Shown one piece after another: positions 1,811 to 36,142 of a stretch of DNA of 64,000 bases. Where the stretch lies: the NCBI GenBank assembly GCA_051954235.1, contig JBQCHY010000056.1, positions 4,499-68,498 on the forward strand. The letters are read 5' to 3'. The position numbers and the translations under genes are program-made. The first letter of the stretch is position 1, and each line of letters begins with the position of its first letter. The DNA comes from Xanthobacteraceae bacterium. Lineage in GTDB: Bacteria > Pseudomonadota > Alphaproteobacteria > Rhizobiales > Xanthobacteraceae. The notes under the pieces were generated by a model, which saw nothing but the letters and a program-made list of their open reading frames with translations, was not told the origin of the DNA and searched no databases.

Positions 1811-2464
1811 ACAGACCTGGCATATGAAAGCGACCGATCAGAAGCTCACCAAGGCCATAGCCAATCGACGTCGTCCACATAACCTAGCCGCCCAAAACCT
1901 CGACCTGCATCACCTAATGGCCTCAAAGTTAGAAAGGCCAAGCACTTCGCGAATTGCCAAACGCCACGCAGGACGGGGGCTCATCTGATGTGCACTCTGC
2001 GACCATCGAAACGGGCGATCCTACCTTCACCCAGTATATGATCGCACAAAGTTCACCGATCTTCACTACCTCTCAAGCCCGGCGTTGAATCTAAACTACA
2101 TTCTTGGGAACCCGTCATCTCTAAATTCTCCTACAGTCTAAAAGCTGCACCTTATTTCTGACGAACAATTACAGGAACTATGCCCAGACACACTATCTGG
2201 ATGAACTCCCTTTCTGAGAAACGAAAACGGGGCACCGCTATGCTGCTAGCTGACTTCAAGAGACGCTGTTCTCACTATGCGCTTGATCCTGGCATCCTGG
2301 AAATCACCCCTACAAATTAAGCATAGGCCTACTGCTTCCAGCCTTTATCTCGGGCCGAAGGGTTTGCCGATTGACATTCTCGCGCGAGCATCAACGAGCC
2401 CGCCTAAAACCCACCAATCCATCTCTCGCACAGAGTGCCGAGACGCTGGATGCCGAGGCATGTG

Positions 2465-10734: not shown

Positions 10735-12672
10735 TTATACAGAATCCGCAGCGACAAGCTCTTCGAAGTTCTCCTCACCTATTCCTGTGTCGATATGAGC
10801 GCGATACCATCGAACATAGTTTACCCACCGCCAGATCTGCCAATTGAACGGCGCTCGATTAGTTACGATCCTATTAAACGACTCGAGAAGAGCGTCGGCG
10901 TTAATGAATGGAATGCTGGCGGCGTCCTGCAACCACTGCCGAATTACCGGGGTAATGCTTAGCAGCCAGTCCCGTTCAGGCGTTGCAAAGCCAATCTTAT
11001 CACGTCGATCCAGAACTACATCTGGTACAATGCCTCGCATAGCGGCCCGAAAGACACGCTTCGTTTCTCCGGCCTCTGATATTAGATAGCTCTCTGGGAG
11101 AGAGAACAGCAATTCCGCCATCGGATTGGTAAGAAATGGAACGCGGCTTTCAATCGAGAATGCCATCGAATTCCTGTCGCCGTGCCGGAGCAAATGTGGC
11201 AGACCCCGCCGCTGGAGGCTGTCGGCGAGTTGTTCTACGACGCGCCGTCCTCTGTTGTCGCGCGATAGAGTTGGCCGCTTCTCCTGAAAGATGACCCCGG
11301 CATCACGTAACAGATCGGTTTTGAGCCAGCCTGGTTGAAAATCGCGTCCAAGTACCTTGCGAGCCTGACGATACAGCCGGTCTGGAAAAACAGAGTGCCC
11401 GAGATACATCCACGCCTGACGATAAGAGCGACCGGGCCAGTTACCCCAATCCCGTGCAAAGCGGTGCATAGCGCCATATTGCCCACTTTCCAAGAGACTC
11501 AACAAGCGCTGGCCTGGATAGCCATCATAACCGGCAAGAAGTTCGTCAGCCCCCTGTCCATCAAGGGTAACAGTTATACCATTCTCACGAGCTAGTTTGA
11601 AAACACGATACTGCGCATAAATGCTTGTACTACCGAAAGGCTCACCCTGAGCCTTGATAAGCGCATCCAAATCCCGAATCAATTCACTAGCGTCCGCTTT
11701 GACCTTATGCGGAATCGCGCCTGTTGTTTGGTTGACCAAATCAACCCATTTCTCCTCCGAGACCTTATCATCCTCGGCAATATAGCTAAACGTATGGATT
11801 GGTATTGAGGGATCGACATGGCGCATTGCACACACGACGGCGGAAGAATCGATCCCCCCCGACAACGCTGCTCCAAGTGGCACATCGCTCCTCAGATTCA
11901 GCCGGACGTTATAGAGAAATTGTTCACGGACAGCCTCTACTGCCTGACCAAAGGTAAACTTCGATACCTCTCGCGTCGGCGGGCGCCACCAGATCTCAGG
12001 CTGTGCTGATGTAGTCGAATCGATATCTACTTCAATAAGGGTTCCAGGCAATAGATGCCGCACGCCTTCCACAAAAGTGCGCTCCTGGCTATCATAATCG
12101 CCATGTACCAGATAGTCGTAAGCACGCTGCAAATCTGGTCTCGCCCGTAAACCTCGCAGCTCCAGTAGGGCTGCCTGCTCCGAGGCGAATCGGAAACCGC
12201 TCTTGTCCCGATCATAGAACAAAGGCTTGATACCAAAAGCGTCGCGTACGCATGTCAACTTGTTGCTGCGGCGATTGTGAACAGCAAAGGCAAACATGCC
12301 CTCAAGCCGGGGCAGGCAAGATTTACCCCACTCGGCCCAGGCAGCCAGCAGAACCTCCGTGTCAGATTCCGAATAAAACTGACGCCCCGCAGCCCGCAAC
12401 TCCTCACGTAGTTCGCGATAATTGTAGATCTCACCATTGAATACTATGGCCAACTGCTGATCCGGGCTCAGCATAGGCTGATGCCCTTTCTCGCTGAGAT
12501 CAATGATCGAAAGACGGTTCTGACCGACAGCCACAACGCCTCGCGCACATCTTGCGATCGCGTGCCCGCTATCGTCCGGGCCTCGATGGCGCAAGAGTGC
12601 TAGGGCCGAAAGGATGCGCCCCTTGACGGGAGCTTGGTCGTCACACCATAGCCCGCCAACGATCCCGCACAT
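10735..12672 (-). CDS. Asparagine synthase (glutamine-hydrolysing) paralog, AsnB/WbpS-type amidotransferase
   Basis: It has MCGIVGG Ntn Cys2 (start taken at 12670-12672), an SGGIDSS PP-loop, and full-length AsnB architecture. Confidence 0.9.
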   Translation of the reverse strand: MCGIVGGLWCDDQAPVKGRILSALALLRHRGPDDSGHAIARCARGVVAVGQNRLSIIDLSEKGHQPMLSPDQQLAIVFNGEIYNYRELREELRAAGRQFYSESDTEVLLAAWAEWGKSCLPRLEGMFAFAVHNRRSNKLTCVRDAFGIKPLFYDRDKSGFRFASEQAALLELRGLRARPDLQRAYDYLVHGDYDSQERTFVEGVRHLLPGTLIEVDIDSTTSAQPEIWWRPPTREVSKFTFGQAVEAVREQFLYNVRLNLRSDVPLGAALSGGIDSSAVVCAMRHVDPSIPIHTFSYIAEDDKVSEEKWVDLVNQTTGAIPHKVKADASELIRDLDALIKAQGEPFGSTSIYAQYRVFKLARENGITVTLDGQGADELLAGYDGYPGQRLLSLLESGQYGAMHRFARDWGNWPGRSYRQAWMYLGHSVFPDRLYRQARKVLGRDFQPGWLKTDLLRDAGVIFQEKRPTLSRDNRGRRVVEQLADSLQRRGLPHLLRHGDRNSMAFSIESRVPFLTNPMAELLFSLPESYLISEAGETKRVFRAAMRGIVPDVVLDRRDKIGFATPERDWLLSITPVIRQWLQDAASIPFINADALLESFNRIVTNRAPFNWQIWRWVNYVRWYRAHIDTGIGEENFEELVAADSV

Positions 12673-12813
12673 CGCCACCTCACTTTTTGTGCGACCGGCA
12701 TTTTGGCGACATTCGACAGAATGCACCTGCATGAATGCGGTACCACAGCGGCGGTTGCTAACAGATAATTGAGAAAGTTTGCAAGCGCGAAACTCAAGAG
12801 GTCTGAAGGACCG

Positions 12814-13935
12814 CTAGCTGGGAACGAAAGGGGCTTTAGAGGCTCGAACCCCTCTTACGACAGCCCAAGCAATCCCGAAAAATAGTCCCAACAACAAAGC
12901 TGTTGGCACAACAATCAACATTTTTGGGAATATTTTCTTAGCCCGAGCTTCAGCCAGACTATATGAGACCGATTCAGCTTGGTCAGGCTTGCTTAACACG
13001 GATCGCGCAAGGAGAGCACTCACCTGCGCTCGCGACACATCGTTCTTGAGAACGAATATTTCCTTCTGCATATCGCGCAGATGTGGGATATATGGATCGT
13101 CGTCCTTTCGGTTCTCCAGTATGTTAACTTGCTCTTCCAACGCCAGATATCCGTCGAAGTATTTCGGATAGCTCAAAGCAGGTTGAAGCTGTCGTTCAGG
13201 GGAAGCGGGCTGCTGAACGGTAGGGGCTGGGGCAAAGCGATCGATAGTGAGTGCCTGCGCCCGAAGTTCCAACGGTCGATCTAGACCAACCGAGCGCGCG
13301 ACCAACGCCTCTTTTCTTAATTTCGCGATATCATCGTGTTTCTCCGCCGCAACTTTTTCTCGTTCCGCCGCAATTAACACGTTAGTTCGCTTGATCCCCC
13401 AGGCCATCGCTTCTTCGTCTGCAGCCACGCGGCGCTCAATTTCTTCCCGGATCCCCACCGCGAGATCCCGACTTGCACGCTTCAGCGCATCTGACACAAA
13501 GGTATTTAGCCGTTCTTCGTTGTCGTATGTCGCCGTCATTTGCAAGCTGATGAAAGTTCGCGCTTCTCCTTGCTTTGCAGGATCACCTTCTTTGACCTTG
13601 AAATCAACTCTAGCACCGGCGACACCTGCTTCTTTCTCCGCAAGCGCAAGGCGGTTCCGATCGGTGAGGTATTTGACGAACTCCCCAGCAAGTGCCTCCC
13701 GCGTATATCCAAAACGGCTAGCGGCCACCAAATCGGCATAATCGGCAAACTTTGCGCGCGTTAGGGGGGTGATCTCCACTTCCGCCCGATAGCTGGCAGG
13801 GATTACGAAATAAACCACCAGGCCCATAACCAGAAAGAGTAACGTGACGACGCCGATCAGTCGTCGGCTCTTCCATGTCATATCCATCAGGTCGATAAGA
13901 TCGAATTCTGCCCGTGCGGTCCCCTGCTCGCTCAT
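12814..13935 (-). CDS. Wzz-type chain-length determinant (PCP-1-like)
   Basis: An N-terminal TM (LIGVVTLLFLVMGLVVYFVI) is followed by PASYRAEVEITP (Wzz motif), a long coiled-coil periplasmic region and a C-terminal TM. The start at MSEQG has an AAGAGG RBS. Confidence 0.75.
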   Translation of the reverse strand: MSEQGTARAEFDLIDLMDMTWKSRRLIGVVTLLFLVMGLVVYFVIPASYRAEVEITPLTRAKFADYADLVAASRFGYTREALAGEFVKYLTDRNRLALAEKEAGVAGARVDFKVKEGDPAKQGEARTFISLQMTATYDNEERLNTFVSDALKRASRDLAVGIREEIERRVAADEEAMAWGIKRTNVLIAAEREKVAAEKHDDIAKLRKEALVARSVGLDRPLELRAQALTIDRFAPAPTVQQPASPERQLQPALSYPKYFDGYLALEEQVNILENRKDDDPYIPHLRDMQKEIFVLKNDVSRAQVSALLARSVLSKPDQAESVSYSLAEARAKKIFPKMLIVVPTALLLGLFFGIAWAVVRGVRASKAPFVPS

Positions 13936-14470
13936 AGCATCAAGCCTCTTATCAACGCGCAAAAGTACGAATTAACCAAACTCAGTTTGGTCCAAGTTTC
14001 CTTGACCGACGGTTTCGAGGGTATGACTGGGAAGAAAATGAATGCCAAGCGACAGAAACATAACTATCCCCTTTAAAACCAAAAACGTCTCCATACTGAG
14101 TATCAACTTATCTTCGCCGACTACAGCGATCCAAAAGCGCCCAAAGCAATCGCATTTGCATCCACGTCGCGGCGTTGGCGAAGCTAAACTATTCACTCCG
14201 AGAAAACGCATAGCAGAGTGATTTTGAACTTCCAAGCTCCAAGTAAACCTCTCGAAAACGGCGGGATAATAGGTAACTGGATGCGAGGAGGTCTCTCACA
14301 ATACCGAGGCGCACTCCGAAACATTGATCATACCCAGAATATGACAATGTCTCGATGCTGAAAGGGAACATACAAATATATCGTGCATCGATCTCAATAC
14401 CGATGTCCCTCAAAATCCTCGTCGGCCATGGAGGCGTGCGCAAGGTTCTGACGCCCAAGGATAGAACACC

Positions 14471-14487
14471 CTAGAATTGCATTCTAG
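14471..14487. promoter_or_regulatory. Perfect 17-bp palindrome CTAGAAT-TGC-ATTCTAG in the divergent control region
   Basis: Read directly from the sequence. It sits about 150 bp upstream of the WbpM/PglF-like start, in a 700-bp AT-rich gap between divergent operons. No cognate factor is known. Confidence 0.2.
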
Positions 14488-14632
14488 AATCAATTCTTTA
14501 GTTGCGAAACAAGCCCTATTGGGAATCGGAGCTATCAGCCGTATCACTAATGCTTGCCTAAATCTCGAAACAGCATATTAGCGGGTATGAAAAGCCTATA
14601 GCTGATATCTGGATGGAATCGGAAGCATTCCT

Positions 14633-16555
14633 ATGATCCGTTTTATGAGTCCAAAACTCACAACACGCAATTATTTGATCGCCCTTCATGACACGCTAGC
14701 GACCGCGCTCGCGGTGTTGATCAGTTTTTTTCTTCGCTTTGAAGGCAGCGCCCTCGAAACACGCCTCCCCGTCCTTTTGTGGATACTCATCCCCTTTCTG
14801 GTTCTGAGCATTATCGTCTGCTATTTCTCTGGTTTGACCACCACGAAATGGAGGTTCGTCTCTCTTCCAGACGTATTCAATATTATTCGCACCGCGACCA
14901 TCCTAACGGTGGCTTTATTGGTGCTGGACTATATTTTTGTCGCGCCGGATATGGGCGACCGCTTCTTTCTCGGCAAAACAACGATCATTCTCTACTGGTT
15001 TCTTGAAGTCTTTTTCCTGAGCGCGTCCCGCTTCGCCTATCGTTACTTTCGCTTCACTCGCACCCAAAATAAAGCACGTGTCGGCGACGCCGCGCCAGCC
15101 TTGTTGATCGGCTTGGCCGCTGACGCAGAGATCGTGCTGCGAGCCTCCGAAAGTGGCGCGATCAAGCAACTTCGGCCGATCGGCATTTTGTCGCCGTCAT
15201 CCGCGGATCGCGGGCAGGTGATCCGACGCACGCCTGTCCTTGGCGGAGTCGAAGACCTAACCGAGGTCGTCAATGACTTCACGAAGCGGGGGACGTCGAT
15301 CAAGCGAGTCATCTTGACTCCGTCAGCGTTTGAACCCGGCGTCCCGTCCGATTCAATTTTGCTTGCTGCTCGAAAGCTCGGCCTGATCGCAAGCCGCCTT
15401 CCCTCTCTTGAGGCCGGAGAAGCACCGCAACTAAAGCCGGTTGCCGTTGAGGACCTTCTTCTGCGTCCGAGCCACAAGATCGACTATAGCCGTCTCGAAG
15501 ATCTGGTTCGCAACAAGGCGATCATCGTTACTGGCGGCGGTGGCTCGATCGGATCGGAAATCTGCGATCGTGTCGTTACCTTTGGTGCTGCTCGCCTCTT
15601 GATTATCGAGAATTCGGAGCCGGCACTATATGCAGTTCAGGAAGCGTTGGTCGCCCGGCAGACGAATGCCACAATCGAAGGCCGCGTGGCGGATATTCGT
15701 GACCGCGCGCGAATCCACCGCCTGATGCAGGAGTTCAAGCCGAACATCGTGTTCCATGCCGCCGCCCTCAAACATGTTCCTATTCTGGAGCGAGATTGGA
15801 GTGAGGGCGTCAAAACCAATATTTTTGGGTCAATCATCGTTGCGGATGCCGCAGCAGCCTCAGGCGCCGATGCCATGGTGATGATTTCGACGGACAAGGC
15901 CGTCGAGCCAGTTTCCATGCTCGGCCTGACCAAACGCTTTGCTGAAATGTATTGTCAAGCGCTGGATCGCGAACTCGCGGCACGAACCAGCGGCAAATTG
16001 CCGATGCGCTTGATATCGGTCCGGTTCGGAAATGTGTTGGCGTCGAATGGTTCCGTCGTACCGAAATTCAAGGCTCAGATTGAGGCGGGCGGACCGGTCA
16101 CGGTCACTCATCCTGATATGGTTCGATACTTTATGACAATCCGGGAGGCCTGCGACCTGGTCATTACGGCCGCGACCCATGCCCTTTCGCCCACCCGCTC
16201 GGACGTCTCGGTTTACGTCCTCGATATGGGACAACCGGTCCGGATCGTTGAGCTCGCCGAACGCCTGATTCAACTTTCGGGTCTACAGATCGGGCATGAC
16301 ATCGATATCGTCTTTTCAGGAATTCGCCCTGGCGAACGGCTCAATGAAATCCTGTTTACGGATCAGGAACCGACCATAGACATTGGTATCTCCGGCGTAA
16401 TGGCCGCCAAGCCAAACGAATCATCGATGCTCGAACTGAGAAAATGGATCGCCGTTCTCGAAAAAGCCGTTGCAGACGACGAGCGAGGCGTCGTCAAAGC
16501 AACGTTGACCGAGGCGGTTCCAGAGTTCGGCCACCCGGCTTCGGAGCTCCATTAG
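14633..16555 (+). CDS. Membrane-anchored UDP-GlcNAc 4,6-dehydratase (WbpM/PglF/CapD family)
   Basis: Four N-terminal TMs are followed by an SDR domain with IIVTGGGGSIGSE (Rossmann) and the MISTDKAV motif. The 640-aa length is typical of the family. Confidence 0.9.
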   Translation: MIRFMSPKLTTRNYLIALHDTLATALAVLISFFLRFEGSALETRLPVLLWILIPFLVLSIIVCYFSGLTTTKWRFVSLPDVFNIIRTATILTVALLVLDYIFVAPDMGDRFFLGKTTIILYWFLEVFFLSASRFAYRYFRFTRTQNKARVGDAAPALLIGLAADAEIVLRASESGAIKQLRPIGILSPSSADRGQVIRRTPVLGGVEDLTEVVNDFTKRGTSIKRVILTPSAFEPGVPSDSILLAARKLGLIASRLPSLEAGEAPQLKPVAVEDLLLRPSHKIDYSRLEDLVRNKAIIVTGGGGSIGSEICDRVVTFGAARLLIIENSEPALYAVQEALVARQTNATIEGRVADIRDRARIHRLMQEFKPNIVFHAAALKHVPILERDWSEGVKTNIFGSIIVADAAAASGADAMVMISTDKAVEPVSMLGLTKRFAEMYCQALDRELAARTSGKLPMRLISVRFGNVLASNGSVVPKFKAQIEAGGPVTVTHPDMVRYFMTIREACDLVITAATHALSPTRSDVSVYVLDMGQPVRIVELAERLIQLSGLQIGHDIDIVFSGIRPGERLNEILFTDQEPTIDIGISGVMAAKPNESSMLELRKWIAVLEKAVADDERGVVKATLTEAVPEFGHPASELH

Positions 16556-16887
16556 GTATACCTGAAACGACCAGGTGCGATACAACAGCCTCGCCGCTCC
16601 GGTAATTCTAAAATGCTTTGCCCCGGAAGCGGGACACTCCAATGCGGGAAACGCCCTACCGCGACATATTGTGCGACCTCAGTCAAACTGTTATGGCATC
16701 GCAATAATAGGGTTCGGGCGCTGTTGCGACCAAGCATCCAGAACACGACGGACAGGCGTGCCTCAGGAAGCGTTACCGAATGTAAGCGATTGTTACCAAT
16801 CTAGTTTCTTGATTTTTTCAAGAAGATTCGGCAGAGCATCCAGCGTCTATTTCTCGATTCTGGTTGGGGTCATCAAAGGTTCAATCA

Positions 16888-19217
<2,330 letters not shown>

Positions 19218-19218
19218 C

Positions 19219-19827
19219 ATGACAGATACAAAAGGTCAGATGAGAGAAGATCCCCGCTTCCCGGGCGTATCAATTCATGAATCGGCGTATGTCGATCATG
19301 ATGTCGCCATCGGGCCGGGGTCTCGCGTATGGCACTTCGTTCATATTCTGCCCAAGGTCACCATCGGCAAGGATTGCATCTTCGGCCAGAACGTCATGAT
19401 TGGCCCGGACGTCAAAATCGGCAATGGCTGCAAGGTGCAGAACAACGTTGCTCTCTACGCCGGCGTCGAACTCGCCGACGATGTCTTTTGCGGACCATCC
19501 TGCGTTTTTACCAACGTGAACAATCCGCGCGCCTTTGTCAGTCGTAAGGACGAGTTTCGGCGAACGCCAGTTGGCAGAGGGGCGAGTATCGGCGCCAACG
19601 CAACGATTGTTTGCGGCCATTCACTCGGCGCCTATTGCTTCATCGCGGCCGGTGCTGTCGTCACTACGGATGTCCCCGACTTCGCGCTCATGGCAGGCGT
19701 TCCAGCCCGACGTATCGGTTGGATGAGCCGAGAAGGCGAGAAATTGGGCTCAGATCTTCGATGCCCGCGGACCGGTGAACGCTATCGCGAAACGCCGGAT
19801 GGCCGCTTGGAGGTAATTTCCGAATGA
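19219..19827 (+). CDS. wbpD: UDP-GlcNAc3NA 3-N-acetyltransferase (left-handed beta-helix, WbpD/WlbB-type)
   Basis: It has hexapeptide repeats (IGPGSRV, IGKDCIF, IGPDVKI, IGNGCKV) and a C-terminal MAGVPARRIGWMS. The position between wbpB and wbpE homologs fits. Confidence 0.8.
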   Translation: MTDTKGQMREDPRFPGVSIHESAYVDHDVAIGPGSRVWHFVHILPKVTIGKDCIFGQNVMIGPDVKIGNGCKVQNNVALYAGVELADDVFCGPSCVFTNVNNPRAFVSRKDEFRRTPVGRGASIGANATIVCGHSLGAYCFIAAGAVVTTDVPDFALMAGVPARRIGWMSREGEKLGSDLRCPRTGERYRETPDGRLEVISE

Positions 19828-20942
19828 GCAAGACATCGATTGATTTCATCGATCTCAAATCTCAATATCGTACGCTCAAGACATCGATCGACGATCGCAT
19901 TCAGGCCGTTCTGAATCATGGCCAATACGTTATGGGCCCCGAAGTCGGCGAGCTCGAAGACAAGCTTGCAGCCTTCGTCGGCGGCGGCCAATGCATCACC
20001 GTTGCGTCCGGGACCGAGGCTCTGCTGATTGCGTTGATGGCGCTGGGAGTCAAGGCTGGCGACGAGGTGATCACATCGCCGTTTACATTTGCTGCAACGG
20101 CGGAAGTTATAGCTCTGGTTGGCGCGACGCCGGTTTTTGTCGATATCGAACCCGATACCTGCAACATCGACGTGCGCCGCATCGAAGCTGCCATAACTCC
20201 CAAAACGCGCGCGATCATGCCGGTTTCCCTTTACGGGCAAGCACCGGACATGGACGACATCAATGCGATTGCCGATCGTCACAATCTCACCGTTATCGAC
20301 GACGCGGCGCAAAGTTTTGGCGCAACCTATCGAGATCGTCGAAGCTGCGCCTTATCGACGATCGGCTGCACCAGCTTTTTCCCCAGCAAGCCTTTGGGGT
20401 GCTATGGCGATGGCGGCGCCATATTCACCACGGACGACTCGCTTGCCAAAGCGATGCGGGAGATCCGGGTCCATGGTCAGGAGCGTCGCTATCACCACAC
20501 CCGGATCGGTGTCGGTGGCCGCATGGATACCATTCAATGCGCCGTCGTGCTTTCAAAGCTTGAGCGCTTCGATTGGGAGTTGGAACGGCGCGAGGAAATC
20601 GCGCAGCGCTATATTCGATCGCTGTCCGGCTCCAACGCGGTTACGCCGCCTGTGGTGCGACCCGACCGGACATCCGCCTGGGCGCAATTTACCGTCCAGG
20701 TCGAGCGCCGAGACCACGTCATTAAGTCGCTGAACGACCACGGCGTCCCCACCGCCATTCACTACCCCATTCCGCTTCACCTGCAACCGGCCTACCGGGA
20801 CCTTTGCCGCATATCGGGAAGCCTCTCTAATGCAGAGCACGTGGCCGACCGTGTCTTCAGCCTACCGATGCATCCTTATCTTTCCGAAGCGACACAAGAC
20901 ACAATCGTTGCCCGTCTTCTGGATTCGGCCGCGGCGTCCTGA
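19824..20942 (+). CDS. wbpE: UDP-3-oxo-GlcNAcA aminotransferase (DegT/DnrJ/EryC1 family, WbpE/WlbC-type)
   Basis: It shows the DegT-family pattern (GPEVGELEDKLAAF..., SFFPSKPLGCYGDGGA with the PLP Lys). The ATGA start/stop overlap with wbpD suggests translational coupling. Confidence 0.8.
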   Translation: MSKTSIDFIDLKSQYRTLKTSIDDRIQAVLNHGQYVMGPEVGELEDKLAAFVGGGQCITVASGTEALLIALMALGVKAGDEVITSPFTFAATAEVIALVGATPVFVDIEPDTCNIDVRRIEAAITPKTRAIMPVSLYGQAPDMDDINAIADRHNLTVIDDAAQSFGATYRDRRSCALSTIGCTSFFPSKPLGCYGDGGAIFTTDDSLAKAMREIRVHGQERRYHHTRIGVGGRMDTIQCAVVLSKLERFDWELERREEIAQRYIRSLSGSNAVTPPVVRPDRTSAWAQFTVQVERRDHVIKSLNDHGVPTAIHYPIPLHLQPAYRDLCRISGSLSNAEHVADRVFSLPMHPYLSEATQDTIVARLLDSAAAS

Positions 20943-28113: not shown

Positions 28114-29454
28114 GTGAAAATCGCGATGATCGGCACCGGCTATGTCGGCCTCGTCTCGGGGGCCTGCTTTGCCGATTTCGGCAATCACGTCACCTGCGTT
28201 GATAAGGATGCCGGCAAGATTGCTGCGCTTCTACGTGGGGAGATACCTATCTTCGAGCCCGGACTTGACGACCTGGTTGCCACCAACGTCCGCGCGGGGC
28301 GCTTGAATTTCACAACCGATCTGGTCGAGTCGGTCGGCGAAGCGGATGCTGTCTTTATCGCGGTTGGGACGCCCTCGCGGCGCGGCGATGGCCATGCGGA
28401 TCTCGCTTATGTCTACACGGCCGCCCGTGAAATCGCCGCCGCCGTTCGGAGATTCACGGTCGTCGTCACGAAATCGACAGTCCCTGTCGGCACGGGTGAT
28501 GAAGTCGAGAGATTGATTGGGGAGGCGTCTCCCGCCGCGGAAATTGTCGTCGCATCCAATCCGGAGTTTCTGCGTGAAGGCGCCGCAATCCGGGACTTCA
28601 AGTTTCCCGACCGCATCATCGTGGGCACCGACGACGAACGAGCGCGCAAAATCATCGGCGATATCTATCGGCCGCTATCGCTCAACCAGGGACCGATCAT
28701 GTACACGGCGCGCCGCACCGCCGAAATGATCAAGTATGCCGCGAACGCATTCCTCGCCACCAAGATCACCTTCATCAACGAGATTGCCGACCTGTCGGAA
28801 AAGGTCGGCGTCAATGTGCAGGAAGTCGCGCGCGGCATCGGCCTGGACAACCGGATCGGAACCAAGTTTCTCCATGCCGGACCAGGCTTCGGCGGATCGT
28901 GCTTTCCGAAGGATACACGCGCGCTACTGAAGACCGCGCAGGATCACGACGTCCCACTGCGCATCGTCGACGCGGTTCTCTCCGTCAATGACAATCGCAA
29001 GCGTGCGATGGCACGTAAGGTCGCTAGTGCGGTCGGCGGCCAGTTGCGAGGCAAGAGCATTGCCGTGCTTGGCCTCACATTCAAGCCCGATACCGACGAT
29101 ATGCGTGAGGCTCCCTCGATCCCGTTGATAACCGGGCTACTCGATATGGGCGCCAAGGTACGCGCATTCGATCCTGCGGGCATGGAGCAGGCGCGCCGGG
29201 AATTGCCGGAGATCGACTACTGCAACGATGCTTACACCTGCGCCAAGGATGCCGATGCGCTAGTGATCGTCACCGAATGGGTCCAGTTCCGCGCGCTCGA
29301 TCTCAAGCAGCTTCATAGCGAGATGCGACAACCGATCATCGTCGACCTACGCAATATCTATCGACGCGAGGATGTCGAAGCCGCAGGCTTCATCTACGAA
29401 AGTATTGGCCGACCAAAACCGGATGGCCGAAGTCGAGTTTCCCAACCCGTCTAG
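28114..29454 (+). CDS. ugd: UDP-glucose 6-dehydrogenase
   Basis: It has (V)KIAMIGTGYVGLVSG and GPGFGGSCFPKD (catalytic Cys). The length and domain order match Ugd. The GTG at 28114 overlaps the preceding stop region. Confidence 0.9.
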   Translation: MKIAMIGTGYVGLVSGACFADFGNHVTCVDKDAGKIAALLRGEIPIFEPGLDDLVATNVRAGRLNFTTDLVESVGEADAVFIAVGTPSRRGDGHADLAYVYTAAREIAAAVRRFTVVVTKSTVPVGTGDEVERLIGEASPAAEIVVASNPEFLREGAAIRDFKFPDRIIVGTDDERARKIIGDIYRPLSLNQGPIMYTARRTAEMIKYAANAFLATKITFINEIADLSEKVGVNVQEVARGIGLDNRIGTKFLHAGPGFGGSCFPKDTRALLKTAQDHDVPLRIVDAVLSVNDNRKRAMARKVASAVGGQLRGKSIAVLGLTFKPDTDDMREAPSIPLITGLLDMGAKVRAFDPAGMEQARRELPEIDYCNDAYTCAKDADALVIVTEWVQFRALDLKQLHSEMRQPIIVDLRNIYRREDVEAAGFIYESIGRPKPDGRSRVSQPV

Positions 29455-29673
29455 GATCAGCCGAACATTCCCGGTATCAGCACAATGCAGGCAACATCTT
29501 TGCGCACCGACACGTGAGGACCAACTTCAACACGATCAGGCTGCCCTCGGCTAAGGTGCTCGATACATCGCCTGGCTGCACCGGCAGAACTCTCCGGATC
29601 ACGTTCTTATTCAATGCGACACGACAATTCAAACCCGTAAGTTTCACCTTCCTCTTCTGAGGCGAAATAATTG

Positions 29674-29688
29674 ATTCTATGATAGAAT
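29674..29688. promoter_or_regulatory. Perfect 15-bp palindrome ATTCTAT-G-ATAGAAT upstream of the FemAB-like gene
   Basis: Read directly from the sequence, about 80 bp upstream of the start at 29769. It shares the TAGAAT/ATTCTA half-site with the palindrome at 14471. Confidence 0.2.
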
Positions 29689-29768
29689 ATCGTCACTGAA
29701 GTAAGAAATCGCCTTTTCCACAGCCATGATCCGGATTCTCTCTTTCTTTTTCAAAGGTGACTGCAAGC

Positions 29769-30752
29769 ATGAACGATCCTAAGGTCCGATATGCCTCACT
29801 TTGCGAGCAAGAATCCGATATCAGCATATTTCAACAGCCTTGGTGGCTCGATGCAACGTGCGGCCCCGAGAATTGGAACGTTATACTGGCTGAATCAGGG
29901 AACGGTATTCAAGCATCTCTCGTTTACCGCAGGAGCAAGAAATTTTTGTTCGAGATACTGTCGCAACCCGCCCTGACTCCTTTTCTCGGCCCATGGATTC
30001 GAGAAAGCAATGCTGGGCCCTCCGAGGCCACATCACGAGAGACGGCTCTGTTGACGGCATTAATTGAGCAGTTGCCGCCATATCATTACTATCTTCAAAA
30101 CTGGAACCCACGATACAAGAGTTGGCTCGCGTTCTATTGGAGGGGTTTTACTCAAACAACCCACTATACCTACATCCTGAATGATCTTCATCACACCGAT
30201 AGGCTGTGGTCTCAGCTTCAGGGTAAAGTTCGTACTGAAATCAAGAAAGCAGAAGGACGGTCGGGAATAGTTGTCACTGATGGCACAGTGGACGAAATGT
30301 ATGCTCTTGTACGGCTGACTTTCTCACGTCAAGGCAAAGAACCACCATTCAGCAAGAGCTATCTCGAGAGTATAGATGCCGCTTGCGCTCAGCGAGCGTG
30401 TCGAAAGATCCTAATTGCAAAAGATAAAAGTGGTCGCCCGCATGCGGGGGCCTATATCGTTTGGGATTCGCTTAGCGCATACTATCTCGTCGGTGGAAGC
30501 GACCCCGAGGTGAGAAACAGCGGAGCAGCAACGCTCTGCCTATGGAAGGCGATTCAGTTTGCCTCAACCGTCTCGAAACAGTTTGATTTTGAAGGATCCA
30601 TAATCGAACCCATTGAACGTTTTTTTAGATCCTTTGGTGCAGCGCAAACACCATATTTCATGATCCAGCGAACAGCGTCTCCATTATTGAAGTGCTTGCT
30701 GTTCATTCGTGATCTGAGAAATGACCTGAAGTCAAAATCTTCCTCCAAGTAA
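29769..30752 (+). CDS. FemAB/BioF2-like GNAT-fold acyl(aminoacyl)transferase
   Basis: The size and overall pattern match the two-GNAT-lobe proteins found in EPS loci (FQQPWWLDA..., later YYLVGGSDPE...GAATLCLWKAIQFA). The assignment was made by eye only. Confidence 0.5.
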   Translation: MNDPKVRYASLCEQESDISIFQQPWWLDATCGPENWNVILAESGNGIQASLVYRRSKKFLFEILSQPALTPFLGPWIRESNAGPSEATSRETALLTALIEQLPPYHYYLQNWNPRYKSWLAFYWRGFTQTTHYTYILNDLHHTDRLWSQLQGKVRTEIKKAEGRSGIVVTDGTVDEMYALVRLTFSRQGKEPPFSKSYLESIDAACAQRACRKILIAKDKSGRPHAGAYIVWDSLSAYYLVGGSDPEVRNSGAATLCLWKAIQFASTVSKQFDFEGSIIEPIERFFRSFGAAQTPYFMIQRTASPLLKCLLFIRDLRNDLKSKSSSK

Positions 30753-30979
30753 AGAATAGCTTTTCAGTTCACCTTTGCAAAGTTCAAGACCGGATGCGTA
30801 TCGCGCAAAACCACACGATCGACGAGGTCTGTCGCACCATCGGCAAACTCGTTCACGCGACGGCAGAGTGCCGGAACTACTTCATCAACGCAGGATACGC
30901 TTCTACTTAAATAGAAAAAAGGTCTAAGCCGTATAAACTGAAATCTTTCGCTTCAGTGTCGTCAACAAACGGCGAGCAA

Positions 30980-32476
30980 TCAATTTCTTCGTACGAGCCA
31001 TGCCCCGCCCACAAATGACAGGTATAGACACTCCACAACGACGCCACAGACAATTGCATTTGCCAAATGTACAGCAGCCAGCTTCGTAAACAAAGCAACA
31101 CCGAAGACAAGGCCGACGACCAACAACCACCGGCCAACAACTGCTCGCGTTGAAAAGCCGCAAGATCGAAATGCAAAGACTGTCCATGTCAACGAGTACA
31201 CAGTATGCACTAGAGCGAAGGCCAAGGTCGCAGCCAAAACGTTCACTGTGATCATCGCTGTAAATTGTATCGCAACTAGAACGGTGATGGCCGAGACAAC
31301 ACTCAGAATTAGCGCCAGGAACTGCCGACCCACAACATCATAAATTCGATCGTATCCAGCAGCGAGCGCCATCAGAAAGCACGGCAACACTAGAATTTGC
31401 AAGATATATCCTGCACCAAGCCATTCCTCTCCCAAAAGCGTTGAAATAATTTGCGGGCCAATAATCATCAATATTCCGACAGGCCCTGCCATCAACACAC
31501 CGACAATCAAATAACAGCTACTTAAGGGACGCTCCCAATTCTCCAAATTATCGAGGCTGCGAGAAAGACGGGAGAAAATAACCTGCCCGAATGCCGCGGG
31601 AAGAAGCGAAAGGGGTTGAAAGGAAAGCTTGAATGCCATCGAGAATGCCCCGGCAGCATGCGGAGAAATCACAGATCCAAGAATCACTGCAGGAAAATAA
31701 CTATATGCAGCCGACGAAAACGAGTTTGGCATCTGGAATGCAGGAAATCGAAAGTGACGACGCGCAACACGTCTAAGATTGGGCCAATCAAATCCGCTTC
31801 GAAAAACGGATAACAAGATCTGGCGTCGCGAGATTCTGATCCAAACGACAAGCATACCTGCCGCTTGCCCACCAATAAATCCCCAAACCAGACCGACCGC
31901 TCCGACTGCCCAAATACCAAATAGCGCTTGGATTACCAAGGTAACGATCGAGACCGACACTCCGGCGACAGCAACCGCAGAGAATGCCTCGATACGGATG
32001 CACCACTGCGTAGCCAGCATATATTGTCCAGCACAGAACAATGCTGGAGGTAGCAACCAAATAAGAGGCTTCATTGTGGAGCTCAAGCCGGGGTTGCCTC
32101 CAAACAATACAACAACCACTGCAATGCCCGTCAGCAGCATAGAGCCAATTATAATGAGCCATGTTGTTAAGGCTGCGAGCAGTACAATATTATCTTTCTC
32201 AGGATCCACCACCAGAGCGAGTTCGTACCGCATAGTCACAAGCACGGCACATAACATATGCACAGAGAGAAAGATTGAATACAAACCAAAGTCCGTGGGA
32301 CTAAACAGTCGAGCAATTATTATAGTGCCGACAAAATTGAGAAATTGGGCTGCGCCAGAGCCGCTCGTTAAGATAGACGCCATACGCGCGAGAGAGCGCA
32401 AGGAGGTGACGTTCGGCACAGCTGAAGTCACAGCATCCTTTCGTAATTCGTTTCGAAATTTCTCACAGTCCGTCAT
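30980..32476 (-). CDS. Wzx-type oligosaccharide flippase (MOP superfamily)
   Basis: The 498-aa protein has about 12-14 TMs and an N-terminal GSGAAQFLNFVGTIIIARLFSPTDFG polysaccharide-biosynthesis-protein motif. The ATGA overlap with the upstream gene suggests coupling. Confidence 0.8.
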   Translation of the reverse strand: MTDCEKFRNELRKDAVTSAVPNVTSLRSLARMASILTSGSGAAQFLNFVGTIIIARLFSPTDFGLYSIFLSVHMLCAVLVTMRYELALVVDPEKDNIVLLAALTTWLIIIGSMLLTGIAVVVVLFGGNPGLSSTMKPLIWLLPPALFCAGQYMLATQWCIRIEAFSAVAVAGVSVSIVTLVIQALFGIWAVGAVGLVWGFIGGQAAGMLVVWIRISRRQILLSVFRSGFDWPNLRRVARRHFRFPAFQMPNSFSSAAYSYFPAVILGSVISPHAAGAFSMAFKLSFQPLSLLPAAFGQVIFSRLSRSLDNLENWERPLSSCYLIVGVLMAGPVGILMIIGPQIISTLLGEEWLGAGYILQILVLPCFLMALAAGYDRIYDVVGRQFLALILSVVSAITVLVAIQFTAMITVNVLAATLAFALVHTVYSLTWTVFAFRSCGFSTRAVVGRWLLVVGLVFGVALFTKLAAVHLANAIVCGVVVECLYLSFVGGAWLVRRN

Positions 32477-33768
32477 ACGTCAAATGGTTTCCGCATCTTT
32501 TGAAGGATAGTTTTGAAGGAGCGACTAACCCGGTCATCAACATCCTCGGCAAAGTGGCCGCATAATCCGAACGCTGATTGGAAGCCTTCCACTTCGTATC
32601 CGCCTTCCCTTATTTGCGTGGAAGTCGGAACGTAAAGCGGACGACCAACGCCATATCCCGTCGCGATAGAGGAGCTTGGAAGATTTAAAATCGGAACCCA
32701 TTCGCCTAGGAGCTCCCCGGACGAAATGACAATCGATAGATTCCCGGAAAAGTTGAGTGCCGACATATTCAACGAAATTTGTGCACCGCTGTTATCGAAA
32801 AATACAGCGGGACTTCGCATATTTTCGAAAGCCATCATTGAACAAATCGTTGGCGAAGGCATAAGCTCAAGAGCAGCCATTACACTGCTTGAGACGCCTT
32901 CACAGTAATCGCAAAACCCTTTCATTGTCTGGTAAGGTAGTAGCTGATGAAAGGGCAGAGACTTGGCTACAACCTGCTTGAATGTCAACGGGAGGGCCGG
33001 CGCAAAATTAGGTATTGCCGATCCCGCGAAGCCCGGAAGAAAAAGCACAGGCAAATCAGACCCGTATTGTCTTCGCACTTGTAGACGTACTGCTCCGGGA
33101 AAGTCAGGCGATACTGAATCGATCCGTGGATAGAAGGCCGGATGGGCTGCTATTGACCAAATAATTGCTTCGATACCTTTGGTTGAGAAGAACGCCCAGG
33201 CCTTAAGCATATTATCGGCAAATCCGTTTGGGTTCCGTGCTTGCGCGACTCTTTTGCCGAACTTCGGAAGACGCCCCCTTTTCAAATCCGAGTACGTCAG
33301 TACCCAGCTGGGGCGGCGCCTATTTACCGCATAACCTCCGTAGACCGCGGTCGCGGCGAGTTTCAGTTCCATAAACTGACTGCCCAACTTCGCCTTGATA
33401 GCACCTGATATGCGTTCAATGCAGCTTTCATAATATGCTTCATCGACTGCACCCAAGCTGGGGGTGGATCGAGCTAATGCCGGTGCATTATGAGTATGGC
33501 TGGCAACGAGCAGCAAGCAAGCCGGACTTATTCCAATGGCTTGAGCGAGTGCGGCGTGAAATTCGGCCTCAATAAACAAAGTATCAAGCGTAACAAGAAC
33601 TACAAAAGCGGGGCCTGAGGCGATAAGCAGCACGTTCGCCTCAAGTTTTCCATCTATTCTGCGAAACACGCCCGATCTCGCGCTATAGCCTGCCAAAGGA
33701 ACCGGCTGGCTCGGAGTGATATCAATGGTAACAAACTCGAACAAAGGTGAATCAAGATGCTCTGGCAT
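32473..33768 (-). CDS. Neutral/alkaline-ceramidase-like amidohydrolase domain protein (function unknown)
   Basis: The N-terminal pattern is IDITPSQPVPLAGYSARSG...LEANVLLI...VVLVTLDTLFI...LLVASHTHNAPAL. It mirrors the bacterial ceramidase-N-domain pattern (DITPP.G.PLAGY...ALVL....V..DL......SATHTHSGP). No signal peptide is evident. Confidence 0.45.
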   Translation of the reverse strand: MPEHLDSPLFEFVTIDITPSQPVPLAGYSARSGVFRRIDGKLEANVLLIASGPAFVVLVTLDTLFIEAEFHAALAQAIGISPACLLLVASHTHNAPALARSTPSLGAVDEAYYESCIERISGAIKAKLGSQFMELKLAATAVYGGYAVNRRRPSWVLTYSDLKRGRLPKFGKRVAQARNPNGFADNMLKAWAFFSTKGIEAIIWSIAAHPAFYPRIDSVSPDFPGAVRLQVRRQYGSDLPVLFLPGFAGSAIPNFAPALPLTFKQVVAKSLPFHQLLPYQTMKGFCDYCEGVSSSVMAALELMPSPTICSMMAFENMRSPAVFFDNSGAQISLNMSALNFSGNLSIVISSGELLGEWVPILNLPSSSIATGYGVGRPLYVPTSTQIREGGYEVEGFQSAFGLCGHFAEDVDDRVSRSFKTILQKMRKPFDV

Positions 33769-33950
33769 TATCTCCCCCTTGACCCCTCAATCAAAATGCT
33801 TGGACATTCGCAACAATAAAGGGATCTCAGTTTGAAAGACCGTATGTAGCCTCTCATGATAATGCAGCAATTTCTTTCAAATCGTGTCTCTGCCATCAGA
33901 GTGTCGTAGGCTAACGAAATGGGTGGCGCATGCTTCGCAAACCGACCTGA

Positions 33951-34907
33951 TCATTTTAAGAACGATGCCAGCTTTCGAATAAGAGGCACTACGGATAATT
34001 TCCTCTTCAAACGTATCACTCCATCTCGGCAAGAGACGAAATATCCTTGCTCATCACGGCTCACCGTACCTGGGGAGTCGCGCATACCCTCGCGTTTCTC
34101 AAAATTTAATACCTCCCAGCGTTGCCCCCGATAGAATCCGGTTGGCGGCTCAAGACAATTCAGCCAAGAATCAGTTCCCCGCAACAGATGCCAAATCCGC
34201 TCGATCGGCCAATTTCCCCAATCGATTATCGAACGATGTTCTTCAGGCTTGAGAATGCGGGCTCGGATCGTTGAAGACAACGCGGGTTGAGTCGTGCGCA
34301 CGGCGATACCAGCCTCAATATCATCGAGAGCCTTTAACAGAAGGGGAATGCCCGTGTCCCCAATAAGTTTGTTGACCAAATCTGGTGACTTTATTCCCAA
34401 CGGGACAGATATTCTCGTTTGTTGAATAATGTCGCCGGTATCTTCTTTGGCATCTACATAATGCACCGTAATTCCAGGGGAAAGCTCCTGAAAATAATAC
34501 TGCCAGAACTCAGGGTTCGGACCGCGATATTCAGGAAGATATGACGGATGCAGATTTATCGTTCCATGGGGCGGCAGTTCAAACACGTTCCGAGGCAAAA
34601 GCTGCGACATTGAGAAAACGACAATTATGTCCGGCGCTATTCCTTTGATCCAGGAAGCAGACTTGTCCATGGTATCGCGCGAGAGCCAAAAATATGGAAT
34701 GTGGCGCTGCCGACAAATCTGTTTAAGCGTAGATAGTCGTCTTACGAATAGGCCGAGAACGGCTCGAATTTGTCTCCGAGCCTTGTGCTTGACTGTCGGT
34801 CGATACTCTCGGGGCGCTGCTTCCGCTGCTCCAACGACGATGTGGCGGGACCTTAATAGCGGTTCAACCACCATTGAGTTTCCCTGTGTTATAATTAAGA
34901 CGCGCAT
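33951..34907 (-). CDS. Formyltransferase-family protein (Fmt/ArnA-N/sugar N-formyltransferase-like)
   Basis: It has MRVLIITQG, DIIVVFSMSQLLP and INLHPSYLPEYRGPNP (the HxSLLPxxRG motif). A C-terminal OB-like extension is present. Confidence 0.8.
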   Translation of the reverse strand: MRVLIITQGNSMVVEPLLRSRHIVVGAAEAAPREYRPTVKHKARRQIRAVLGLFVRRLSTLKQICRQRHIPYFWLSRDTMDKSASWIKGIAPDIIVVFSMSQLLPRNVFELPPHGTINLHPSYLPEYRGPNPEFWQYYFQELSPGITVHYVDAKEDTGDIIQQTRISVPLGIKSPDLVNKLIGDTGIPLLLKALDDIEAGIAVRTTQPALSSTIRARILKPEEHRSIIDWGNWPIERIWHLLRGTDSWLNCLEPPTGFYRGQRWEVLNFEKREGMRDSPGTVSRDEQGYFVSCRDGVIRLKRKLSVVPLIRKLASFLK

Positions 34908-35089
34908 TGAATTCCCTGACTTATTCGATCTCACACGACTCGGCTACGAAACCAAGCGGTGAGATCGGAAGCTTACATTTCTCCAGCTATCTTGAATGGT
35001 AAATTACGAAAGTGGTTCGGTCACCACTCGATCCAAAGGACTCAGATCACTCGATTAGCACGTCGGTGATAGATATAGTTATGTCCACA

Positions 35090-35910
35090 AGTATCGTTTG
35101 AGAAATGCAAGGGCTAGCACCGCTGCAACGGCAATTGAATGCCAGCACCGATAAATCGCTTCTACACTGCGCAGGCCGTTAATTGCTTCTGCGAGGGCAT
35201 TGCCGTCGATATCTCCAACGTCTCGAATAGGCGGCCCAAAGCCGACTTTGGTCAGAATTGAGCGTCCTTAATGGTTACATGCCGGCTAACCCTGTCGCTA
35301 TAGTAAGTTTAAAGGCCCACCGCAATAAGGCGTGCCGCCGATCCCGGAGGAGTATTCCGGTCCTTCGAGCATAAAACCGGTATACAGCGATCATCAGCCG
35401 GCAAAGGGAAGTCGGAAAGCCAGAAACGTTTATTGTGGTGTCTTGATTGATCGGTTGACTCGATCCGGAAGATCCTGCGTCGTCCTACCGCCGGCAGCGG
35501 CTTTAACGAGTTCACCGCGGACGCTCGCTTGCTTGCCCATCTCCCATCAGTCGCGACATCTTGCAGCAAACAACATCGAAACTTTCGCACTTGGTTCGTC
35601 ACCAAGGTTTACACACAGGACATGCTCTTCAAACACTCGTCGGATATTGATCTTGACACTGGCGCCCCGACAGCCTGGCGGGATAGGCGATTGGTGACAT
35701 AGACGTGGTAGGTAGACGCGAAGACCGGCAGAACCTTGCAGATCGGCTCGCCTTGTGCTCCCCGTGATGATCGTCGATAAAGACGATCATCAGTTGTTCG
35801 GAGGTCAAGCTCCGCCGTCGCAAAAAGTAAGCGCTCAATTTACGTAAGATCTCATTGATCTGTTGAAGTTCACGGCTAGTCCACTTTGGCGCCTTTTGCT
35901 TTTCCGTCAA
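35090..35910 (-). mobile_element. IS3-family transposase debris (different IS from the one at 3956-4838), multiple frameshifts and internal deletion
   Basis: On the minus strand: ...RELQQINEILRKLSAYF (orfA leucine-zipper end), MIVFIDDHHGEH (orfB start), NKRFWLSDF (catalytic-core region) and DGNALAEAINGLRSVEAIYR (rve C-terminal block). They lie in different frames and no intact ORF remains. Confidence 0.6.
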
Positions 35911-36142
35911 GCCTGCCGGGACATCAACACGCTTGCATGTTGATGTCCGCCTTCTTCACGCAGGTATCGGAGCGTCTCGTTCGTTATCGATCAATATCAC
36001 TCCACCCTCTCAAGAGTTTGGGCGGTCGGCCAACTTCGGCACCGCTCTATCGCAGCTGCTTTGCCGATCCTCATTCAACGGCTAGGCTGAAGATACTTAT
36101 CCGAGTTTCACAACACCTAAAGCATCCGCTGGAGCCCATTCC

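Follow-up and report, generated by a model that had tools for sequence, protein, structure and literature searches.

A ceramidase-fold amidase in the proposed role of VimE: a candidate Wbp/Vim-type amino-sugar editing cassette in an alphaproteobacterial O-antigen cluster

We analysed a 64,000-nucleotide stretch of DNA from the metagenome-assembled genome of a Xanthobacteraceae bacterium (GCA_051954235.1, contig JBQCHY010000056.1, positions 4,499 to 68,498), here called the window. The left half of the window is a single polysaccharide cluster, and within it the segment 29455-34934 carries four genes. An earlier note, made from the sequence, had read this segment as an AT-rich module that takes an N-acyl group off an amino sugar and puts another one on. 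All four open reading frames (ORFs) are present where that note had placed them, and all four gene calls were right; since homologues of each were found at E < 1e-100, they are real genes and not chance ORFs. The four genes and the feature at the right edge of the cluster are as follows.

29757-30752, plus strand: VimA-like predicted aminoacyltransferase of the FemX (double-GNAT) fold, 331 amino acids (aa); true start probably M5 (29769), from homologue lengths

30980-32476, minus strand: Wzx/MOP flippase, 498 aa (Pfam Polysacc_synt_3, E 1.4e-20); its start overlaps the amidase stop

32473-33768, minus strand: ceramidase-fold zinc amidohydrolase (the amidase), cytoplasmic and single-domain, 431 aa; proposed N-deacetylase in VimE's place

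33951-34934, minus strand: Fmt/ArnA-type N10-formyl-tetrahydrofolate-dependent formyltransferase (FMT), 327 aa; true start probably M10 (34907), from homologue lengths

35660..35980 (approximate), no strand assigned: remnant of an IS3-family transposase

The VimA-like gene lies on the opposite strand and is convergent with the FMT-amidase-Wzx operon. The overlap of the amidase stop with the flippase start is an ATGA at 32473-32476, as had been pointed out before: on the minus strand the amidase ends ...GAC GTA TGA and Wzx begins ATG ACG GAC. The FMT and amidase genes are 182 bp apart on the same strand, and they are likewise neighbours in two close relatives of the locus, L025 and L027. L025, which of the sequenced relatives with a long contig is the closest, has two additional Pfam-less ORFs (431 and 400 aa; 13485-15860) between Wzx and the VimA-like gene. 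The IS3 debris that was said to bound the segment on the right was recovered by blastn against annotated IS3 transposases as a remnant of ~310 bp, at 67-75% identity over that length only. The spacer that bears it measures 1.2 kb in the window; in L027, an 85% identical relative, the gap from the CoA-transferase gene to the FMT gene is only 223 bp, too short for an IS3-bearing spacer.

The G+C content of the segment is 49.1%, against 51.6-56.1% elsewhere in the cluster and 59.6% in the flanking chromosome (beyond 36 kb). The earlier 60-base counts were exact (26/60 at 34381, 32 and 31/60 at 31201 and 32701). That the segment has the lowest G+C holds for a stretch of 5.5 kb, the lowest of all 5.48 kb intervals being those that start at ~29300-30000, but not at finer scale, where single 1 kb intervals at 3-4, 10-11 and 14-15 kb are equally low (0.47).

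Hidden Markov model (HMM) searches, which the earlier note had proposed together with structure-based annotation, were run for the amidase, the VimA-like protein and FMT, and structures were modelled for the first two. The 431-aa amidase had no sequence match in Pfam, NCBIfam or the PDB (phmmer), and the neutral ceramidase model PF04734 was absent even at E <= 10; only distant members of the family carry it. The link to ceramidases required a family profile and a predicted structure. The profile matched the neutral ceramidase of Pseudomonas aeruginosa (2zws) at E 1.2e-5. The AlphaFold2 (AF2) model, with a predicted local distance difference test (pLDDT) score of 94, matched 2zws in Foldseek at E 6e-20 with a query template-modelling (TM) score of 0.72 and the human enzyme 4wgk at E 7e-18; beyond these two neutral ceramidases, Foldseek returned no other credible fold for it. 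As regards fold and active site, the name ceramidase-like amidohydrolase was thus right, the failure of the Pfam model notwithstanding.

In an alignment of 31 sequences (A1), the amidase residues H91, T92, H93, R150, R151, H209, E352 and Y379 are invariant and Y391 is nearly so (at least 90%). In the profile alignment H91, H93, H209, Y379 and Y391 fall on H97, H99, H204, Y448 and Y460 of 2zws, while E352 and R150/R151 were matched to E411 and R160 of the P. aeruginosa ceramidase (PaCDase) by order only, with no printed alignment. The five 2zws residues, with E411, we take to be the zinc ligands and catalytic residues of PaCDase. With the fold, zinc ligands and catalytic residues kept, the modelled amidase looks active. 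It shares with the neutral ceramidases (2ZWS of P. aeruginosa, 4WGK of human; PF04734) the catalytic fold, the zinc ligands and the catalytic His, Arg and Tyr, and it differs from them in identity (~12%) and in layout: no signal peptide precedes the catalytic domain, at which the protein starts, and the chain stops at 431 aa, lacking the C-terminal immunoglobulin-like domain (2zws has 646 aa). True ceramidases are secreted. The amidase also differs in its polysaccharide context, and its substrate would presumably be an N-acetyl amino sugar and not ceramide.

The family of the amidase is large, comprising 1,835 clusters (50% identity) at E <= 1e-30 in an exhaustive profile search. Among the best 150 clusters, most members have 400-450 aa and match from the first few residues (2-10). 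An initial count of 47 proteins, which suggested a rare family, came from a word-indexed search and was a prefilter artefact.

The VimA-like protein matched Pfam Acetyltransf_6 (E 9.5e-12) and, weakly, TIGR03019 (E 2.5e-10). Its family has more than 1838 members, with ~50% identity to proteins of Vibrio cholerae, Aeromonas veronii, Pseudomonas, Devosia and others and a mean column identity of 63% in our alignment (A2). The AF2 model (pLDDT 91) had FemX as top Foldseek match (1ne9 and 7z6a, E ~4e-15, TM 0.68-0.71), followed by the Sbb17/Sba18 peptide synthases, FemA and MprF; all of these are aminoacyl-tRNA dependent. The protein resembles FemX of Weissella viridescens and Sbb17/Sba18 in its double-GNAT fold and size (~330 aa) but is only ~16% identical to them, scores just under the Pfam FemAB threshold (22.7 bits versus 24), and has a donor and an acceptor that are predicted. 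FemX acts on a UDP-linked precursor as acceptor; for Sbb17/Sba18, the PDB entries name streptothrisamine as the bound compound. FemX, FemA and FemB build a short peptide stepwise on lipid II. Tandem copies of the VimA-like gene were seen in two loci: L104 (4943-9583) has three VimA/FemAB-like genes after Wzx and then one VimE-like gene, and L060 has two copies. By analogy, such enzymes may build a short peptide stepwise on the sugar.

A pathway with a similar set of enzymes has been described in Porphyromonas gingivalis and Tannerella forsythia (Veith et al. 2020, PMC7468200). In this Wbp/Vim pathway, WbpA/B/E/D make the di-N-acetyl uronic acid UDP-GlcNAc3NAcA, the CE4 deacetylase VimE is proposed to take off the C-2 acetyl group, VimA transfers serine or glycine (cross-species complementation altered the amino acid), and WbpS amidates the acid (PMC7468200). 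The same study found vimA homologues beside vimE homologues, with complete Wbp pathways, in A. veronii, V. cholerae and Pseudomonas mosselii. We observed the vimA-vimE architecture in V. cholerae (L029, L111), A. veronii (L112) and Comamonas (L113).

To place the window among such loci, we collected 80 metagenome loci and several genome loci with a VimA-like gene, of which 47 had at least 1 kb downstream and could be evaluated. A VimE-like gene of the DUF7033 family (~450 aa) follows the VimA-like gene directly in 43 of the 47 and stands elsewhere in the locus in the other 4; it is absent from none. Invariant positions of the DUF7033 proteins agree with the motifs of CE4 enzymes (D-x-D, H-x4-H and a C-terminal W-H pair). 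Pfam gave weak Polysacc_deac_1/WbmS-like matches, and a PDB profile search gave only marginal matches to chitin deacetylases (E 0.2-0.5); the identity was settled by the NCBIfam VimE model NF053580, which the partner proteins match at E 1e-42 to 1e-56. In the 64-kb window, an hmmsearch with a DUF7033/VimE-like profile (A3, E <= 1) detected no VimE-like ORF.

We then compared 29 loci with a ceramidase-like gene (24 genome loci, 4 further contig loci and 1 metagenome locus, L095). DUF7033 and ceramidase-like genes are mutually exclusive: none of these 29 loci has a DUF7033 gene, and 61 VimA-like loci do. In two loci other than the window, the ceramidase-like gene follows a VimA-like gene directly. 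In L009, from a Burkholderiales metagenome-assembled genome, the order is Wzx, VimA-like, ceramidase-like, the last two overlapping by 4 bp, which is exactly the VimE slot; in L095 a gap of 7 bp separates the VimA-like gene from the ceramidase-like gene behind it. For each VimA-like protein that is paired with a ceramidase-like gene (window/L025, L009 and L095), the nearest relatives are DUF7033-paired proteins, at 52-56% identity, which indicates that the exchange of VimE for a ceramidase-like protein took place at least three independent times. This recurrent, mutually exclusive use of one slot beside a conserved VimA-like enzyme is our main argument that the ceramidase-fold protein does the job of VimE. 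We infer that the amidase replaced VimE by non-orthologous displacement. A role of the amidase as an imidazoline-forming cyclase was set aside as too speculative.

Most of the 29 ceramidase-like loci are polysaccharide loci. A WbpE-like aminotransferase is present in 13 and a WbpB-like oxidoreductase in 11 of them, and a Wzx gene adjoins the ceramidase-like gene in 10 loci besides the window. Azospirillum-type loci have the ceramidase-like gene after Wzx at the operon end, together with WbpB/WbpE-like genes and no obvious re-acylating enzyme; in Paracoccaceae and Erythrobacter it occurs with WbpABDE and a second hexapeptide acyltransferase. One Paracoccaceae locus (L018, 7748-16503) has, in addition to that set, a methyltransferase-like gene and a sulfotransferase, and no VimA-like gene; to judge from this gene set, the sugar may be deacetylated and then re-decorated in another way, perhaps by N-sulfation. 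The general role of the amidase family may be to expose an amine that is then left free or variously re-decorated. That the family as a whole comprises unrecognised amino-sugar N-deacetylases for surface polysaccharides, which repeatedly displaced the CE4 enzyme VimE and may act on an undecaprenyl-linked unit, is a tentative proposal that we hold with somewhat less than even confidence. A lipid-amidase ancestry and the tight coupling to Wzx are the reasons for considering that the substrate may be the undecaprenyl-linked unit and not a nucleotide sugar.

FMT matched Formyl_trans_N (PF00551, E 1.2e-18) and Formyl_trans_C (E 1.8e-6), and its catalytic motifs are kept: N127-x-H129 within NLHPS (127-131) and D165-T-G-D168 within DTGDI (165-169). 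Its best family scores were those of Fmt and ArnA; dedicated sugar N-formyltransferases reached ~33 bits at most. Against the Met-tRNA formyltransferase model TIGR00460 it scored 90 bits, far under the cut-off of 201.5. Members of its clade are often named methionyl-tRNA formyltransferase in public records, and on the score of the window protein this is probably systematic over-annotation. The clade spans Devosia, Hyphomicrobiaceae, Endozoicomonas, Vibrio, Aeromonas and Comamonas at ~50% identity, and several of its matches were on contigs equal in size to contigs that bear a VimA-like gene.

In V. cholerae L111, A. veronii L112, Comamonas L113 and 6 metagenome loci, the gene directly upstream of the VimA-like one is an FMT. 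The occupant of this upstream slot varies: in loci L031 to L110 it is a GNAT in 12, a sulfotransferase in 11, a methyltransferase in 7, an FMT in 6 and an ATP-grasp protein in 2. Two V. cholerae loci, L029 and L111, share the order of Wbp genes, Wzx, AsnB, VimA-like and VimE-like genes and differ in the gene before the VimA-like one, which is a GNAT in L029 (9423-10004) and an FMT in L111 (10001-10954). This pair amounts to a natural swap and should yield N-acetyl and N-formyl caps, respectively. We considered whether the L029 GNAT resembles the toxins that acetylate aminoacyl-tRNA and dropped the idea, its PDB matches being uninformative. Because the variable tailoring gene adjoins a constant aminoacyl-transfer core, we propose that FMT modifies the transferred amino acid; it probably caps that amino acid, not the sugar, to give an N-formyl-aminoacyl group. 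By the same token, sulfated or methylated aminoacyl sugars may exist. Of the two N-acyl donors that the earlier note had invoked, both are present, but they are probably not alternatives on the same sugar amine, given the place of the FMT clade beside the VimA-like gene and the interchangeable slot.

Two further features of the cluster enter into the proposed pathway.

16864..20942, plus strand: contiguous wbpA-wbpB-wbpD-wbpE homologues, assigned by Pfam domain order; presumed makers of the editing substrate UDP-GlcNAc3NAcA

10735..12732, minus strand: AsnB-like amidotransferase, candidate for the WbpS type (Asn_synthase + GATase_7)

The wbpA-wbpB-wbpD-wbpE set is an established route to UDP-GlcNAc3NAcA. 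In the window the Pfam order is NDP-sugar dehydrogenase, GFO/IDH/MocA oxidoreductase, hexapeptide acetyltransferase and DegT aminotransferase, and the block is 53-68% identical to the equivalent four-gene blocks of other loci. The AsnB/WbpS-type ORF scored 322.8 bits against TIGR03108 (eps_aminotran_1), under the cut-off of 816.9, and would probably form a uronamide; in V. cholerae, Aeromonas and Comamonas, too, an AsnB-type gene stands beside the VimA-like one.

We propose the following chain. WbpA/B/E/D, whose genes are present, would make UDP-2,3-diacetamido-2,3-dideoxy-glucuronic acid. The ceramidase-fold zinc amidase, to judge from the displacement of VimE, would strip one N-acetyl group, by analogy with VimE the one at C-2, from either the nucleotide sugar or an undecaprenyl-linked unit. 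The VimA-like transferase, on the grounds of fold and family, would then attach an amino acid, with aminoacyl-tRNA as the probable donor, to the amine so exposed, and FMT, as its equivalence to the other slot occupants suggests, would formylate the alpha-amine of this amino acid to give an N-(N-formyl-aminoacyl) substituent. Finally, the AsnB/WbpS-type enzyme would amidate the uronic acid, and the translationally coupled Wzx would flip the finished unit. The segment would then be a variant of the Wbp/Vim editing cassette within an O-antigen cluster; for the full chain, formyl cap included, we estimate a probability of about 0.55, and we have more confidence in the core of deacetylation followed by aminoacylation than in the whole. 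The deacylate-and-reacylate idea of the earlier note is upheld in so far as comparative genomics and the match to the Wbp/Vim pathway point to the removal of an N-acetyl group and the re-acylation of a diamino sugar made next door, though it is not new in principle. The scheme itself is already known; the unusual part is the identity of the amidase.

Several points weigh against this chain. Among the 29 ceramidase-like loci, about 24 show no VimA-like gene in the available flanks of up to 10 kb per side, so the role of the ceramidase-like enzyme is not tied to aminoacylation and could differ. The search for VimE covered the 64-kb window out of a contig of 247 kb, and a homologue could lie elsewhere in the genome. 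In the Vibrio structures the aminoacyl group is on N-3, not N-2, and the amine that is freed here may be either one. It is the modelled fold by itself that makes aminoacyl-tRNA the probable donor, and the window protein is tied to P. gingivalis VimA by homology only transitively, by way of the V. cholerae and A. veronii homologues (PMC7468200). The amino-acid donor is discussed neither there nor in a later paper; the word "tRNA" is absent from both texts. In the window, moreover, FMT is co-oriented with the amidase and not with the VimA-like gene, an arrangement that also fits direct formylation of the sugar amine.

Such direct formylation follows the earlier note: the amidase would free a sugar amine and FMT would formylate it. 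In this version the FemAB-like enzyme would act independently on another amine or residue. The adjacency of FMT and amidase in the window, L025 and L027 speaks for this scheme, as does the presence of ArnA-type and sugar N-formyltransferases, which act on sugar amines, among the PDB matches of FMT. However, a general partnership of FMT with the ceramidase-like gene had to be rejected: apart from the window, only its close relatives L025 and L027 have this FMT among the ceramidase-like loci. The clade is consistently found beside the VimA-like gene instead, its position is interchangeable with GNAT, sulfotransferase and methyltransferase genes, and the scores of FMT favour Fmt and ArnA over the dedicated sugar enzymes. 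We regard direct formylation as unlikely.

A second possibility is transient protection of the ArnA/ArnD kind, in which FMT would formylate the WbpE product, so drawing the transamination forward, and the amidase would deformylate the lipid-linked sugar before aminoacylation and flipping. In the Arn pathway, which makes 4-amino-4-deoxyarabinose (Ara4N), ArnD is a CE4 enzyme that acts on the lipid-linked sugar before flipping. The likeness is real, in that one pathway brings together an Fmt-like formyltransferase, whose two-domain layout is that of ArnA, with an amidohydrolase and with a flippase, here translationally coupled to the amidase. Yet WbpD is present and already acylates the 3-amine, ceramidase-like genes usually occur with no FMT at all, and the sulfotransferases and methyltransferases of the same slot cannot perform transient protecting steps. 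The Arn formyl group is transient and the Arn hydrolase is CE4; the formyl group predicted here is more likely a final decoration, and in a related antigen, that of Vibrio anguillarum O2, N-formyl-alanyl is kept as an end product (PMC10059132). This scheme appears improbable.

A similarly poor prospect is that the ceramidase-like protein cuts a lipid amide (of ceramide, lipid A or ornithine lipid) or has some other role, with a VimE elsewhere serving the VimA-like enzyme. True ceramidases are the amidase's sole structural relatives, the VimE search covered 64 kb of contig, and most ceramidase-like loci have no VimA-like gene nearby, all of which this view accommodates. Against it stand the absence of a signal peptide, unlike in secreted ceramidases, the predominance of polysaccharide loci among the 29, the strict exclusivity of ceramidase-like and VimE-like genes, the occupation of the exact VimE slot in L009 and L095, and the recurrence of the displacement. 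Finally, FMT might formylate aminoacyl-tRNA, the VimA-like enzyme transferring the ready N-formyl-aminoacyl group to the deacetylated sugar, as its best score among curated families (TIGR00460) and its Fmt-type C-terminal domain would allow, but its score is far under the Fmt cut-off, the sulfotransferases and methyltransferases found in that slot would hardly take amino acids bound to tRNA as substrates, and Fem-type enzymes are known to use aminoacyl-tRNA with a free amine, which leaves this as a very improbable route.

Compared with the Wbp/Vim pathway, the proposed Wbp/Vim-type cassette of the window has the Wbp genes next door, an acyltransferase of the same family, an AsnB-like candidate for the WbpS-type amidotransferase and the same deacetylate-then-aminoacylate logic. 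It differs in having a ceramidase-fold amidase and no VimE (CE4/DUF7033) in the window, in its location within a Wzx/Wzy O-antigen cluster of an alphaproteobacterium, and in the added formyltransferase, which would block the amine of the amino acid; in P. gingivalis this amine is the point at which T9SS (type IX secretion system) cargo is attached. The logic is also that of NodB/NodA and LpxC/LpxD, in which a metal-dependent de-N-acetylase bares a sugar amine and a dedicated transferase re-acylates it, but those folds are unrelated to that of the window amidase, and the new acyl group is a fatty acid and not an amino acid.

It has been known for a long time that the O-antigens of Vibrio, Aeromonas, Pseudoalteromonas and others contain N-aminoacyl and N-formyl-aminoacyl amino sugars. 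Examples include N-acetyl-alanyl, N-acetyl-glycyl and N-formyl-alanyl amino sugars (PMC3210612). The V. anguillarum O2 antigen contains diNAcBac (bacillosamine), ManNAc3NAcA and a GlcNAc3N-uronamide with N-formyl-L-alanyl (PMC10059132). The gene content of the window fits this composition. Literature searches on ceramidase with O-antigen, on DUF7033, on WbmS and on FemAB or tRNA-dependent Fem enzymes with polysaccharide returned nothing on this cassette, and in the literature searched we found no paper that assigns genes for N-aminoacyl or N-formyl-aminoacyl amino sugars in Proteobacteria.

The comparison links the Wbp/Vim pathway of Bacteroidota to a widespread proteobacterial cassette consisting of Wzx, a modifier, a VimA-like and a VimE-like gene, and thereby ties it to the N-(acyl-aminoacyl) sugars that proteobacterial O-antigens have long been known to carry. 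The final cap may be set by whichever enzyme fills the slot upstream of the VimA-like gene, and this would aid the prediction of serotype chemistry from sequence. To our knowledge, the neutral-ceramidase fold has so far been known only from lipid amidases. A large unannotated family of this fold gains a testable function as candidate sugar de-N-acetylase; if the proposal is true, the family also illustrates clearly how non-orthologous displacement can recur, and the fold acquires a new activity.

The remainder of the cluster encodes Wzz, two GT4 glycosyltransferases, the AsnB/WbpS-like and a WbuX-like amidotransferase, PglF/PglC/PglD/PglE-like proteins (bacillosamine type), an AGE-family epimerase, ManC, a Wzy_C-family protein and Ugd. 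Four other ORFs were recorded.

142-855, plus strand: ORF with an SGNH domain, by domain match, of a type that occurs fused to AT3 acyltransferases

2435-3958, plus strand: Pfam-less ORF inside the cluster, 507 aa

7310-9130, minus strand: 606-aa protein with a glutamine-amidotransferase domain and a WbuX-like 'N-acetyl sugar amidotransferase' region (TIGR03573, E 4e-37)

9385-10683, minus strand: Pfam-less ORF inside the cluster, 432 aa

An AT3-SGNH gene stands between wbpE and wzx in the V. cholerae and Comamonas versions of the cluster. The 606-aa WbuX-like protein hints at an acetamidino group on the same polysaccharide. Weak relatives of the ORF at 9385-10683 adjoin VimE-like genes in four metagenome loci, and this ORF may be a Wzy polymerase.

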